Below, piece by piece: positions 5,375 to 44,372 of a DNA stretch of 64,000 bases (within the stretch, counting starts at the first letter, position 1; each line of letters begins with the position of its first letter). The notes beneath the pieces are model-generated. The model was not told the DNA's origin. It saw only the letters and a list, made by a program, of their open reading frames with translations, and did not search any database. The DNA comes from Fistulifera solaris (taxonomy: Eukaryota): contig AP026162.1 of the NCBI GenBank assembly GCA_030295235.1, positions 992,001-1,056,000 of the forward strand. Direction: 5' to 3'. Made by a program: the position numbers and the translations under genes.

Positions 5375-5586
5375 CTTGATCATTTCAACCGAATAGCAGG
5401 TGTCTCTTTATTAGTGATAATAAGCAAGACGCCATTTCGGTTTTTGCGCGTCGCGATCGCCGTTTTCCGCGATAAAACGCAGCGAGCAAAAAAATAGTTT
5501 GAGTCGTCTACATTTTGTTCAACTGTTCGAGTACCACTCGACACTGACCGGTATTGCCCAAGATCTTTTTCCTTTGTTTTTCGCCG

Positions 5587-5738
5587 TGTTGTTTGCCAGT
5601 TTCTGTACGTCAACCGACCAACCCGTAACCCTCTCGGATCACGGCATCCACCAGTATTCGGAGCGACCATTTGATAGCAACCTCGTAGCTCATAATAATT
5701 GAGATCACCTTATCATCATCTAGAGGTTACCATCAATA
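5587..5738 (+). repeat. 5' LTR (152 bp, TGTTG...CAATA)
   Basis: Direct repeat identical by eye to 10953-11104 and preceded by the TSD. Confidence 0.95.
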
Positions 5739-5750
5739 GATCTCAATTAT
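5739..5750 (+). promoter_or_regulatory. Putative self-priming primer-binding site GATCTCAATTAT
   Basis: Abuts the 5' LTR. It is the exact reverse complement of LTR 5695-5706 (ATAATTGAGATC). No TGG tRNA-type PBS start is present. Confidence 0.75.
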
Positions 5751-5839
5751 CTTTTTTCTTTCCTTTATCTTTCGCGAATTGATTCACCGACAACAGTCGT
5801 CAATCTGTGACTTGTGGCGTCGTTGTTGCCACTAGTGCA

Positions 5840-6924
5840 ATGTCCACCATCGACCCCAATTTCCCCCAGTTTCCCAACAGGGCTCTGGATGTCATCCCCG
5901 GACGCCCCACTTCATATACTTTGCGCATCCTGAAACGGCAAGTGTATGCAAATGCTGGTGCTATCCGTTCCGTACGTGGTGGTGGGGCCCATGGTCATTT
6001 GGGCGTTGCCATGCCCGGCCGAATATTTTGGCGTTGACCAATCAGCATTTCATCCCACCCCCTAACCCCGGATTGCCTCCGGTGCCCCAACAGGGGGACA
6101 CGAATTATGTTCTTACCGCCACGCGACAAGCTTACGATGCTGCGGTGGCGGAATTCAATACGTACACTGCTCTTATTGCCACTCTCCGCGCGCAAATTTT
6201 GGCCGCTGTGGAACCAATCTACCGTGAGGAACTCCTTGATCCGCTCCATGAGTACAATCTTGTGAGCATTTGCGATTTTCTGGCATTTTTGGATAATCAG
6301 TACGGTCAGATGACGGCCTTGGATTACGAAAACAATCGTGAACAGCTTTCCAATCAATGGGATCCCTCTAACCCTATTGAGCATTTATGGGCGACATTGC
6401 CAAAATCAAGGCCATTGATCCTAACATTACGGACGCAACGGTTATCCTCAAAACTCAGGACGCGTTGGCCAAATCTGGAGTATTCCATTACCACTTGCAG
6501 ACTTGGCGCGATAAACCGGCGGCTGAGCAGACGTGGGCGAATTTCAAGGATCATTTCACGCGCGGATTCTGATCGTAAACACAACCTTACCACTCAGGCG
6601 GCAGGCTTTCACAGTGCACACATGGCTGCCACATTCGCCAATCCCATTGCAGCAGCCGCGGGTAAAAATCCACCGTCTTCTGGCACACCGATCCCCACGG
6701 CTGGATTGGAACTCTTCTATTGTTGGTCCCACGGACTCAACCTGACCCACAACGGAGACGCATGCAAGAACCCGGAACCTGGCCACCATGCCGATGCGAC
6801 TGCGGCCAATCGCAAGGGCGGAAGTGAAAAGTTGCGCTTTGGAAAATCCGGCAAACCGAGCCGTAATGGTCGTCGCAACAATCCTTTGGCCAACTCGGCC
6901 GCTGCCCCTGAGCCTTCCGAATAG
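5840..6924 (+). CDS. gag: Retrotransposon Gag (frameshifted)
   Basis: ATG at 5840. GGAHGHLG motif, WDPSNPIE, and CoDi-type knuckle YCWSHG...H...C...NRKGGS. Ends at TAG 6922-6924. Confidence 0.85.
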
Positions 6925-9900
6925 GGACGAGGGGAGCCTGAGCCAATTTGTCAGAACGATGTTAAGTTTAACACCACGTTAACTTCTCCGCCGTCTGTTT
7001 CTAATTCTAGCCCAGGTCCCCCCGCTCATCTCATTGCTGACTCAGGTAGTACCGGCAATTACGTCAGCAGTAATTTTCCGTCCTGAATATTGTCCCCACC
7101 AACAACCCTATTCACATTACCATTCCCGACGGATCAACCCTTACCTCTACCCACGAAGGCATCTTAGACTTCCCCGGGTTGGCGCCGGCAGCTCGCCATG
7201 TCCACATTTTCCCGGAACTCCACCAGTGTTCTCTTCTTTCCATTGGTCAACTGTGCGAGTCGCGGGATATCATGTACGGTTTGATGCCACGACCATGGCC
7301 GTCCACGACAGTCTTGACAACATTGTCCTCACTGGTCACCGCGATCGTGGTACCGGCTTATGGCATGTTCCAATTCCGCCTATTCCAGTCCCGCATGCCT
7401 CTATGCCAACACCGGGGCCTCCGCCTCAGCCCATGGCCGCCCGTGCAATTGGTGCACCCGCCCACGGCTGAACTGGTAGCTTTTGCTCATGCCTCTTTGT
7501 TCTCACCGGCATTATCAACACTGGAAGCCGCACTTTTGCGGGGCTTTCTTACCAACTTCCCGGGTCTCACGCTTGCCAGTCTCCGGAAGTATCCACCGCG
7601 CAGTCTCGCGAATGCACAAGGGGCACATGGATCAAATTCGAAAAAATCTGAGGTCCACTAAGCACCTACCCGGCCCTCCTACTGATGCACTATTGTTTCC
7701 CGGCGACACAGAGCTTGAGGATCAACAACCACAACAGTTGGCGGCACGCACAAATTTTTGCTACATCAGCATTATTGAACCTACAGGTCAAATCTATACC
7801 GATCAGACCGGCAAATTCATCACGCCGTCTACAACTGGTAATAATTATCTCATGGTTCTTTATGATTACGACAGCAATTCTATCTGGGCACAGCCATACC
7901 CTACTAAAACAAGTGCCAGTCTTGTGACCGCCTACAAAAAGCTCCATAATCGTCTTGTCCGTGGAGGCCTACGACCTCTGCAACGCTTAGATAATGAGGC
8001 TTCCCATGAGTTAAAAGAGTTCATGACGGATGAAGGAATTGATTACCAGCTTGTCCCGCCCGGCAGTCCATCGCCGCTTAATGCTGCCGAACGTGCTATC
8101 CGCACCTTTGCCAATCATTTCATTGCGGGTTTATGCAGTACCGATGTCAACTTTCCCTTGCATCTGTGGGATCAACTTATCCCACAAGCCGAAATCACGT
8201 TAAATTTGATGCGTGGTTCCCGAATCAACCCAAATCTATCTGCCTTCAGCGCAACTCAATGGCACCTTTGACTTTAACCGTCACCCACTTGGACCACCCG
8301 GCACCTTTGTCCTTGCCCATGAAAAACCAAGTAACCGCACTACTTGGTCGCCTCATGCCTTGGAAGCCTGGTATGTTGGTCCTGCTCTTGAATCCTATCG
8401 GTGCTACAGAGTGTGGATTATTGATACACGCGACACTCGCATTTGCGATACACTCGAGTGGTTCCCGCAACATGTCAAAATTCCAGCCAGTTCGTCCACC
8501 GACCTCATCTATTCTGCACTACAAGATATCCTGTATGCTTTGCAAAATCCGTCACCGGCATCCCCTCTTGCCCCACGCACAGATAGTCAAACACAGGCAC
8601 TCCAGGATGTTGTCACTTTGCTCACGACCATATGTACGGATGAGGATGCCGCACTTCCCAACGTGACTTCGATTCCGGCAATTGCGCCCACTTCCAAGGG
8701 TGGTGCCCAAAACGGTCCCCGACATCGCTCCACTTCCAAGGGTGGAGCCAAGAAAGGTGCATTTTGACCCCAACATACCATCCAGCGATCGCACAACCAC
8801 TCAACTTTATCGTGAATTCCAACAGCCGGCGATCTCCAGACCGCCCTGTGCCTCCCGGAGCAAACCCGACAGAGCCTGTTATGCCCACCACCTACCGTGA
8901 ATTAACTGGGCCTGTGGGCCGCCGCAATCGGCGCACTCAACGCCGCGCTCAACACAAGAAAGCTACTGCTGGTCCACACCTCATGGCCGGTGTCCCGCGT
9001 CGTTCTGGCCGTCGCCCAAACCTAAAGTTCCCTTTGCCGCTCCTGCTGTTGCCGCTACCGCACCTACGACACCCTCTATCACTCTCCCTTTGTTTGCGTT
9101 TTCATGGTACCGCGTTAAATCCCGACACCGGACGTGTAGCTGAATACCGTGAGCTCAGCCAATGTACCACCGGTCCCCTCTGGCAAAAAAGCAAATTGTG
9201 ATGAAATTGGACGCCTTTTTCAGGGCCTCGGACCGTCCTCCAAAATGCCCACTGGCACGGGATACATGCCACTTCATCTACCATCACGAGGTCCCTGAGG
9301 GTAAAACTGTCACCCACGTCCAAAGTCGTTTTGCGCTGATCGACCGGAAAAGGCCGATCCGAACGTGTTCGATGGACTGCGGGCGGTGATCGGATCCAGT
9401 ACCTTGGCGATGTTAGCACCCAAACGGCCGATGTCATTACGGTCAAAGTCCTTATCAACAGTGTTCTCAGTACTCAATGCTCAAGCAATGTCCATGGACC
9501 TCAAAGACTTTTACCTCACGGGCGAATCTTGACGAGTATGAATATATTCGGGTTCCGGTTTACCTCATTCCGACTTCATCATCGACTTGTATCAACTTCA
9601 CGACAAAATTCACAATGGTTTTCTTTATGTCGAGGGTCCGCTTAAAGGCATGTACGGCCTCCCACAGGCCGGCAAACTCGCACATGACCGGCTCCGTAAA
9701 TATCTTGCTCCCCACGGCTATGTTCCATGCACCCACACCCACGGACTTTGGCGCCACACAACATCCAATTTACTTTTTACTCTGGTCGTGGATGATTTCT
9801 TTGTTAAATACACAGAGCGCCAACAAGCGGAAAACTTACTTCAACTTCTCCAGCAATATTATGTTGTGAAAACCGATTGGTCGGCCAGTCGACACGTCGG

Positions 9901-11068
9901 TCTCACAATCAATTGGGACTATGACAATCGCGACGGCTGATATATCCATGCCCGGCTACGTCGAACGTGCTCTATCCCGCTTTGAACACCCAACGCCCGG
10001 CTAAACCAGAACATTCTCCTCACGCCTGGACGGCACCGATTTACGGATCACGTCAACAATACGCCCCAAACGTTTGACGATGCCCCACAAGTTAGCCCTG
10101 CTGTCACCACTCGAATCCAGGAAATTTTGGGAACATTGTTGTATTATGCCCGCGCGGTTGATTGTTCTTTACTTCCGGCCATCGGCACTCTCGCTACTCA
10201 ACAAGCCCACGCCACCGAACACACTGTTGAAGCTATCACGCAATTGCTCAATTATTGTGCCACACACCCCGATGCTACCGTCCGGCCTTCTGATATGATC
10301 TTGCACATTGAAAGTGATGCTTCCTATCTTTCTGAAACAAAGGCTCGCTCACGGGCAGCCGGCTACCACTATCTCAGCTCCACTCCAAGCACCAGTGACA
10401 CGCCGCCGCCTTTCAATGGACCCATTGCCGTGCATTCCACCATCCTGAAAGAAGTTGTATCCAGTGCTGCTGAAGCTGAACTTGCGGCTTTATTTTACAA
10501 CGGAAAGGAAGCCTGTCCGATTCGCACTGCACTTGAAGAAATGAATCACCCTCAGCCCGCCACGCCCATTGTCACCGACAATAGCACCGCCAGTGGAATT
10601 GCAAACGATACTGTTAAACAAAAACGCTCCAAAGCAATGGATATGCGTTTTTATTGGATTCGCGATCGTGTTCGACAAGGCCAGTTCCACATTTATTGGC
10701 AAAGAGGCGAAACAAACAAAGCAGATTATTTCACCAAGCATCACTCGCGCAAATATCATCAGCAAATGCGCCCCGTTTATTTTGTGGATCCACCGGAGCG
10801 CTCGAATTATTATGCGTGCCTAGCGCATGAAACTGAAGATGAAAATCCCCGTGCTTTTCATCGCGATGAAAATGAAAAACGAAAAAATCGGCACGACTCA
10901 GCATCTTACGGGACTGCGTCTCTCTTCGCTCCTCCTACTGCTGGCAAGGGTGTGTTGTTTGCCAGTTTCTGTACGTCAACCGACCAACCCGTAACCCTCT
11001 CGGATCACGGCATCCACCAGTATTCGGAGCGACCATTTGATAGCAACCTCGTAGCTCATAATAATTGA
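6925..11068 (+). CDS. pol: Retrotransposon Pol (PR-IN-RT-RH), many frameshifts; in frame with gag beyond TAG
   Basis: The gag frame continues GRGEPEP...HLIADSGSTGNYV after the TAG. IN, RT and RH motifs follow in successive ORFs. The last ORF ends at TGA 11066-11068 inside the 3' LTR. Confidence 0.85.
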
Positions 11069-11104
11069 GATCACCTTATCATCATCTAGAGGTTACCATC
11101 AATA
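10953..11104 (+). repeat. 3' LTR (152 bp)
   Basis: Identical to the 5' LTR. Preceded by the short purine-rich tract GGCAAGGGTG (PPT candidate) and followed by the TSD CGCCG. Confidence 0.95.
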
Positions 11105-11226
11105 CGCCGCGCCTCATTTTTGTTCTCCACCACAACAAACAATGCTCGAATGCACTACGTTTCTTTCACACTCCCCATTAAAGTCTTTATCCAAGATTTG
11201 TCTGCTTTCTAAAGTCCCAAGAGTAA

Positions 11227-25948: not shown

Positions 25949-26630
25949 TGCTTCGTGACTGAAATGCAGTCGTGGTAAAGTTGAGGACACACCCTAGTCC
26001 TATAATAAATACAGAAATGTACAATCCGCAGCAAACTTTTCCGACGTCTAGCTTCGTGGCGGGCACTGCAAATGCGTCGGAGCGTATTTTTGTTGTGCAA
26101 AGGACAAATGAAGCTTCAAACGAACGTGCTGCGGCAGTTTGGGTCGGAAAAATTGTGCTTCGTGACTGATTTACAGTCCTGGAAAAAGGTAGCAGACACT
26201 TGGATCTATAGTAAATACAGAGGTCGACGATCCGCAAAGTTTTCCGACGTCTAGCTTCGTGGCGGGCACTTCAAATGCGTCGGAGCGTATTTTTGTTGTG
26301 CAAAGGACAAATGAAGCTTCAAACGAACGTGCTGCGGCAGTTTGGGTCGGAAAAATTGTGCTTCGTGACTGATTTACAGTCGTGGAAAAGGTAGCAGACA
26401 CTTGGATCTATAGTAAATGCAGAGGTCGACGATCCGCAAAGATTTTCGATGTATACCATCGTGGTGGGCACTTCGAATGCGTCGGAGCGTAGTTTTGTTG
26501 TGCAAAAGACAAATATAGCTTCGGTGATAGGAGTTTCGGAACGAAGGAGCGGTTGCAGTTTAGTTCAAAACTTTTTTCTTCGTGACTGAAATGCAGTCAT
26601 GGTAAGTTTAGGATACATGTTGGATGTATA
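25949..26630. repeat. ~205-bp tandem repeat, about 3.3 units
   Basis: CTTCGTGACTGA at 25951, 26158, 26361 and 26578. Long near-identical blocks are shared between units. Confidence 0.92.
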
Positions 26631-44299: not shown

Positions 44300-44372
44300 T
44301 CCGGTATGATGTAGGTGGTTAGCATACTTGCCTTTCACGCAGGATACCGGGGTTCGAGTCCCCGTACCGGAA
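44300..44372 (+). tRNA. trnE-UUC: tRNA-Glu (anticodon TTC)
   Basis: Acceptor TCCGGTA/TACCGGA. Anticodon arm CTTGC-CTTTCAC-GCAGG with TTC at 44334-44336. T-arm CGGGG-TTCGAGT-CCCCG. T5 terminator at 44379-44383. Confidence 0.95.

Follow-up and report, generated by a model that had tools for sequence, protein, structure and literature searches.

How reverse transcription is primed is the question raised by an LTR retrotransposon that lies in a stretch of 64,000 nucleotides of diatom DNA, the whole of which is referred to below as the window. TGG does not follow its 5' LTR directly; the 12 nucleotides in that place, GATCTCAATTAT (5739-5750), form a perfect reverse complement to ATAATTGAGATC, which is situated within the LTR itself (5695-5706, LTR nt 109-120). 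Tf1 is the only element in which reverse transcription has been demonstrated to be self-primed; its first 11 bases pair with the primer site, and RNase H cuts between nucleotides 11 and 12 (PMC7175516). Self-priming is considered established for Tf1/Tf2 and has been inferred for the Tf1/sushi group and for Tj1 (PMC7175516, PMC4600332). Among the plant Ty1/copia elements, Houba and Osr-1 were already proposed to prime themselves, and the same was predicted of the TAR lineage (PMC6317226). For the present locus and its relatives, Tf1-like self-priming without a tRNA in a large diatom-associated Copia clade appears to be the best explanation, and a probability of approximately 0.7 is assigned to it from comparison of the sequences.

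The element was delimited through its LTRs. A repeat search paired 5586-5738 with 10952-11104 at 100% identity, and comparison of the flanks then set the borders listed in Table 1, leaving LTRs of 152 nt that run from TGTTG to CAATA. Two identical LTRs of this length together with a 5-bp target-site duplication identify an LTR retrotransposon. The borders are independently supported by contigs of run X1 in which the LTR has other neighbours, since these part from the window at precisely the same points (before 5587, after 5738/5739, and before 10953). The X1 contigs also bridge both LTR/flank junctions, a DNA-like behaviour which says nothing on expression; two further runs, X2 and X3, gave no contigs here. 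Neither tblastn nor blastn found a second copy of the element within the 64-kb window. Within 5504-5911 of the window, the word depth of X1 over the LTR was approximately 4-5 times that of the flanks and the interior, and loose X1 ends place the LTR beside other sequences, as solo LTRs or other copies would.

The gag N-terminus, MSTIDPNFPQFP, with its ATG at 5840, is identical to the start of protein P0121 of Fistulifera solaris, named in its source as an integrase-catalytic-domain protein. The RNase H piece of the element is 99% identical to P0121 and on this basis the host was taken to be the pennate diatom F. solaris. Other named homologues were from Fragilaria crotonensis and Nitzschia inconspicua, and the source names of some are Ty1/copia reverse transcriptase. 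An integrase-like D, D, E stretch was read from the sequence of the ORF at 7480-8271, ahead of the reverse transcriptase (RT) in the ORF at 9542-9940, for which Pfam returned RVT_2 with an E-value of 1.2e-6 and 28.7 bits, below the cut-off of 31.6; RNase H extends from 9986 onward. No Pfam family was matched by P0121, the gene model of which is without part of the RT (as seen in alignment gaps), and three relatives, P0122, P0124 and P0151, were used for Pfam in its place. Each gave RVT_2 at 24.5-30.5 bits, all below the 31.6-bit cut-off, and with P0122 and P0124 a weak match to SH3_retrovirus (E about 0.05) was seen ahead of it. Judged from this order of domains, the element is a Ty1/copia-order LTR retrotransposon of F. 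solaris with its integrase encoded upstream of RT.

Table 1. Coordinates of the element and of its predicted priming features in the 64-kb window.
Feature	Position	Strand	Remarks
Target-site duplication CGCCG, left copy	5582-5586	.	recurs at 11105-11109
5' LTR, 152 nt	5587-5738	+	100% identical to 10953-11104; X1 contigs part from it at the borders
TCATAA, initiator-like word	5690-5695	+	conserved just upstream of the 5' arm
5' arm ATAATTGAGATC, predicted self-primer	5695-5706	+	exact complement of 5739-5750; C5706 at its 3' end pairs with G5739
Loop, 32 nt, remainder of R/U5	5707-5738	+	terminates in the LTR end TCAATA
3' arm GATCTCAATTAT, predicted primer-binding site	5739-5750	+	offset 0 from the LTR
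Untranslated leader	5751-5839	+	ends at the gag ATG, 5840
Internal region (gag, protease, integrase, RT, RNase H)	5840-10952	+	several broken frames in the assembly
Polypurine-like tract GGCAAGGGTG	10943-10952	+	abuts the 3' LTR, inside the pol frame
3' LTR	10953-11104	+	copy of the 5' arm within it at 11061-11072
Target-site duplication CGCCG, right copy	11105-11109	.	5 bp, flanks the 3' LTR

The coding region (5840-10950) is split over many frames despite the identity of the LTRs. X1 and the window disagree at no fewer than 34 small indels inside the element, where the depth of X1 resembles that of the flanks, so that many of these frame breaks may be errors of assembly rather than signs of decay. 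The pol frame continues through the polypurine tract and approximately 115 nt into the 3' LTR (window 10943-11068). With the relatives, a conserved protein word, G-E-G-V-L, near the C-terminus of pol corresponds to the polypurine tract and the LTR start, GGTGAGGGTG followed by TGTTG.

With the LTR borders in hand, direct comparison upheld the original prediction that the 12 nucleotides after the 5' LTR are exactly complementary to 5695-5706, and likewise its statements that a TGG-type site and a spacer are both absent, the 3' arm beginning at the first nucleotide behind the LTR. Complementarity goes no further than these 12 nt on either side. A search of the 64-kb window that allowed up to one mismatch located the 12-mer only at the primer site (+) and, on the opposite strand, in the two LTR copies (-); a word complementary to the arm copy of the 3' LTR was not found behind that LTR. 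Folded as RNA, the hairpin of the window has an energy of -15.3 kcal/mol (z = -3.4), and Rfam returned no match over 5400-6000. Chance, or an artefact of assembly, might be thought to account for the repeat, considering that the window copy is full of frame breaks and that X1 departs from it by many small indels. But the arm is present in each of the LTR copies and in the X1 contigs as well, the first of the differences listed near the primer site is at 5752, and by arithmetic a fixed 12-mer is expected to meet its complement in a 152-nt LTR with a frequency of only ~8e-6; such an origin is given a negligible probability. A variant leader in X1, which differs from 5752 onward, retains the primer-site word.

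The relatives permit a more general test. Metagenome contigs were scanned with an alignment (A1) built from 33 full-length polyproteins, and 78 loci (L001-L078) with 32-56% amino-acid identity to P0121 were obtained. The gag ATG was placed in 50 of these by means of the conserved gag N-terminus, and up to 350 nt upstream of gag were searched for any perfect inverted repeat whose arms are separated by 10-250 nt. Counts refer to the 47 regions with at least 200 nt upstream, being the window and 46 metagenome loci, and include approximately seven near-duplicate pairs. A perfect inverted repeat of 11-16 nt was present in 41/47 regions, compared to 4/940 dinucleotide-preserving shuffles that reached 11 nt or more; complementarity of the arms is therefore not a product of chance, which the relatives rule out as an explanation.

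Exceptions to the perfect repeat number six of the 47, and four of them fit with a single bulge, mismatch or G-U: L025 and L027 have a 12-nt pairing with a one-base bulge, L062 pairs with one mismatch and L054 with one G-U. The arms of L024 are a degraded version of those of L077. Neither hairpin nor motif was seen in the 391 nt of L015, the LTR of which may lie further upstream. Four loci with less than 200 nt upstream (L016, L022, L035 and L063) were excluded from the 47; on visual inspection, 12 bp pair perfectly in L016 and 13 bp pair with one bulge in L035, while L022 and L063 are too short for judgement and L072 is without an ATG.

Many of the metagenome contigs, 5.1-6.5 kb in length, overlap exactly at their two ends, and they look like circularly permuted assemblies of LTR elements in which the two LTRs have collapsed into one, so that the end of pol, the LTR and the beginning of gag are contiguous; such contigs could be mistaken for circular genomes. 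The notion that the contig ends represent transcript ends was considered and rejected, as the overlaps, of 64-127 nt and longer, look like circular assembly paths and no contig starts at CA.

The arms themselves differ from one family to the next, each accompanied by its exact complement, as exemplified by TTTACGTAGCTC, ATATTGTAGTTC, TCTTAACACTTC and AATTTACTAACGAC, among others. Thirty distinct forms of the 11-nt primer site occur in the 42 aligned rows, the mean number of differences being 5.6. Over the nine inner pairs (alignment A2), 98.1% of 364 cells are paired, a share that falls to 28-36% once the partner is displaced by 1-3 columns, and 112 cells have changed on both sides, compared to 25.5 in shuffles. 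The pairing percentage is partly so by construction because the rows were selected for holding a repeat, and the unbiased test is the shuffle comparison over the 47 regions. RNAalifold, applied to 17 rows, predicted the same 12-bp helix unaided, with compensatory changes at 11 of its 12 pairs. The comparative test for covariation between the 12-mer of the LTR and the primer site, which had been set out with the original prediction, was thus passed: the complementarity has been kept through compensatory changes in the relatives. Only one G-U pair occurs among the 364 cells, a near-absence more in keeping with templated copying than with selection that acts on the RNA fold alone.

These same words bear on the possibility that the 12-mer binds a host tRNA, half-tRNA or tRNA fragment, its complement in the LTR being incidental. 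Copia-type elements do use internal tRNA fragments (PMC6317226), but a conserved tRNA cannot explain primer sites that comprise 30 distinct words in 42 rows while the LTR of each family follows with the matching complement. Moreover, no row begins with TGG, and the tRNA-Glu gene at 44300-44372 offers no match to the 12-mer at up to one mismatch; Rfam likewise placed no tRNA in 5400-6000. From the primer-site words and the one tRNA gene of the window, priming by a host tRNA is accordingly held to be very improbable. The tRNA-Glu (TTC) gene is the sole tRNA of the window and is unrelated to the primer-site word.

The location of the arms relative to the LTR is as regular as their pairing. The 3' end of a minus-strand primer pairs, by definition, with the first nucleotide after U5. 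In approximately 40/42 rows, the 3' arm stands directly behind an LTR-terminus word (TCAACA, TCAATA, TCAGCA, TTAGCA or similar), a word that inverts and complements the LTR start, TGTTG(A). Among the relatives, the loop opens with a conserved A(C/T)C(G/T)TT and closes with a conserved TCAAYA. Since most of the contigs are circularly permuted with one collapsed LTR, the LTR borders of the relatives were deduced from motifs. A regular expression for the polypurine tract and LTR start gave only three loci, while the translated word G-x-G-V gave 12 of the 31 relatives searched for it; in these 12, GGTGAGGGTG marks the polypurine tract directly before the presumed LTR start. (The G-x-G-V or GGTGAGGGTG word is absent from the window's own translation.) The LTRs delimited in this manner are 120-281 nt in length, with terminal inverted repeats that match at 3-6 of 6 positions. 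Together, the LTR-end words and the LTRs delimited by the polypurine word indicate that the 3' arm begins right after the LTR across the clade. In the relatives and the window alike, the 5' arm belongs to the LTR and stands 27-70 nt short of the LTR end, and the stem begins at the first nucleotide after U5, the place expected for the 3' end of a primer. TGG was found within the first 8 nt after the LTR in 0/42 rows.

It is against this position that the most substantial alternative has to be weighed, namely that the conserved hairpin serves another role (packaging or dimerisation, control of gag translation, or formation of the LTR 3' end) and that the primer is another molecule. A covarying stem demonstrates selection for pairing, not which process uses the pairing, and there is a precedent in GalEa, a fungal Copia element without a tRNA site that has a conserved hairpin of unknown role at the position of the primer site (PMC5445492). 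The failure to find a significant inner stem of the U5-IR type over 39 loops also leans in this direction. On the other hand, the base of the stem falls on the LTR border in practically all families, which is expected of a primer 3' end and is unneeded for packaging or translation signals; an alternative primer site of the TGG type is absent from all 42 rows; and the nearly pure Watson-Crick pairing fits a copying of one arm into the other. A different role for the hairpin is considered unlikely on balance, and self-priming is retained as the preferred reading.

For self-priming, the start of transcription is predicted to lie close to the 5' end of the LTR arm. Upstream of that arm, CA is invariant in 42/42 aligned rows, and it forms part of YCAHW in 40/42 and of TCAHW in 31/42, situated 0-8 nt (mode 3-4) ahead of the arm; the 5' arm never runs past the A of YCAHW. 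The word matches TCAH+1W, the proposed Inr-like consensus of diatoms, a loose one that is present in 67.9% of the 5' flanks of P. tricornutum (PMC4686930). Comparison of the rows suggests that transcription of the window element starts at A5692 or T5693, not at 5695 as the original prediction had it. With such a start, there would be 2-3 unpaired nucleotides at the 5' end of the RNA, a U3 of approximately 105-106 nt, and an R+U5 of approximately 46-47 nt.

The proposed course of events is as follows. Transcription would begin at the initiator-like TCATAA, at about 5692/5693, and nucleotides 5695-5706 of the RNA would anneal to 5739-5750, either by folding back or in trans between the RNAs of a dimer. 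Cleavage by the element's own RNase H is predicted after C5706, and the freed 3'-OH, paired to G5739, would then be extended over 5738 to 5707 to give a minus-strand strong-stop DNA of 32 nt. This DNA would be transferred to its counterpart within the RNA's 3' LTR copy, and plus-strand synthesis would eventually copy the RNA primer, thereby regenerating the primer site. Such regeneration would be the reason that the arms are almost always perfectly Watson-Crick. With Tf1, mutations in the primer are passed on to the primer site.

Some features of the element speak against this scheme. The predicted start is 2-3 nt upstream of the paired stretch, and both the R+U5 of only approximately 46-47 nt and the strong-stop DNA of 32 nt are very short for strand transfer. 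An inner stem-loop of the U5-IR type had a mean z of about 0 over the 39 loops, 14 of which start paired compared to 8.3 expected; the window fold, taken alone, has a 5-bp inner stem within the loop. The original prediction of tRNA-independent self-priming in a Copia-order element is well supported by comparison, through the covariation and the position at the LTR border, while the mechanism, that is the start, the cleavage and the use of the 5' arm as primer, is one that we infer.

Tf1 and Tf2 of Schizosaccharomyces pombe, both Ty3/gypsy elements, are among the closest known parallels in that they are without a tRNA site and have 11-12 nt near the start of the LTR transcript which complement an LTR-adjacent primer site. 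The window element differs in having its integrase before RT, with an RT that is RVT_2-like. Whereas the very first 11 nt pair in Tf1, 0-8 unpaired nucleotides are predicted at the 5' end in the diatom clade, and whereas Tf1 needs its U5-IR structure, a comparable stem is not significant in the diatom loops, which measure only about 30-55 nt. Further, the mechanism of Tf1 was shown experimentally and that of the diatom clade is predicted from sequence. Without the gypsy order of RT before integrase, the window element is, by its domains, outside the Tf1/sushi group, and it is only its predicted mechanism that is Tf1-like.

Among the Copia elements, the plant TAR lineage is comparable in superfamily and in the complementarity of LTR and primer site, taken in that study as at least 10 bp to the LTR at 0-5 bp after it (PMC6317226); the window element has 12 nt at offset 0. 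The TAR elements differ in having land-plant hosts. As far as could be seen in the plant study, the evidence from covariation is more explicit for the diatom clade than for TAR (PMC6317226). GalEa resembles the window element in having no tRNA site and a conserved hairpin at the primer-site position, but both of its arms follow the LTR, and the hairpin has a palindromic first arm and a conserved A/A mismatch (PMC5445492); its authors did not find an LTR sequence complementary to the hairpin (PMC5445492). The 5' arm of the window element is inside the LTR, which is the geometry of Tf1 and not that of the GalEa-type Conserved Hairpin Site.

GalEa and the CoDi-like elements share a branch of Copia (PMC2774666). 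Like the window element, the CoDi elements of Phaeodactylum and Thalassiosira are diatom Ty1/copia retrotransposons, with LTRs from 153 bp, a length of 5.2-8 kb, and at most one stop or frameshift separating gag from pol (PMC2806351). The 163-bp LTR of one of them, Blackbeard, drives transcription (PMC2806351). The main text of the CoDi paper makes no mention of primer binding, tRNA or priming (PMC2806351), and in the available text of the study of CoDi clades the topic of self-priming is absent (PMC2774666). It had been suggested along with the original prediction that self-priming might already have been raised for the diatom CoDi elements; no such proposal was found in the main texts of openly available papers. 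What appears to be new is consequently the extension to a broad diatom clade of an idea already predicted for plant Copia.

Elsewhere, self-priming has been predicted from complementarity within single elements; here, the prediction is drawn from covariation that runs through a whole clade and sits precisely at the LTR border, and evidence from sequence can hardly be much stronger. The clade's use of self-priming would be an independent, or a very ancient, occurrence of the Tf1 strategy, and the mechanism, if true, arose or persisted in both LTR superfamilies. Copia elements are the dominant transposons of diatom genomes and are activated by stress in Phaeodactylum (PMC2806351). If they do prime themselves, diatom Copia elements would escape both dependence on tRNA and restriction based on tRNA fragments, and the word shared by LTR and primer site would provide a simple, family-specific marker for diatom LTR elements that tRNA-based finders miss.

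An organization of gag and pol recurs in the same relatives. With 42/78 loci (among L001-L076), a gag frame of 300-520 amino acids ends in exactly one in-frame stop that is followed by the pol frame. The stop codon is TGA in 28, TAG in 14 and TAA in none (examples are L007:1362-1364 and L002:1289-1291), and a conserved purine-rich word of the GAGGG(A/G)AG type is found shortly behind it. This looks like expression of gag-pol through programmed readthrough of the stop codon, as in the type C retroviruses and Tj1 (PMC4600332). Tj1, from Schizosaccharomyces japonicus, is likened to these 42 relatives by its single in-frame stop between gag and pol (PMC4600332), but it is a Gypsy-order element of a fungal host and is active in an assay. 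That the whole clade, at 32-56% polyprotein identity, dispenses with tRNA primers and combines Tf1-style self-priming from a minimal R-U5 of approximately 45-85 nt, beginning at an initiator word, with readthrough of the gag-pol stop seems reasonably probable from the sequences at hand. Elsewhere in the window, at 26031-26591, three tandem copies of a unit of approximately 156 nt occur at a spacing of 202-203 nt, with identities of 100%, 98% and 65%.
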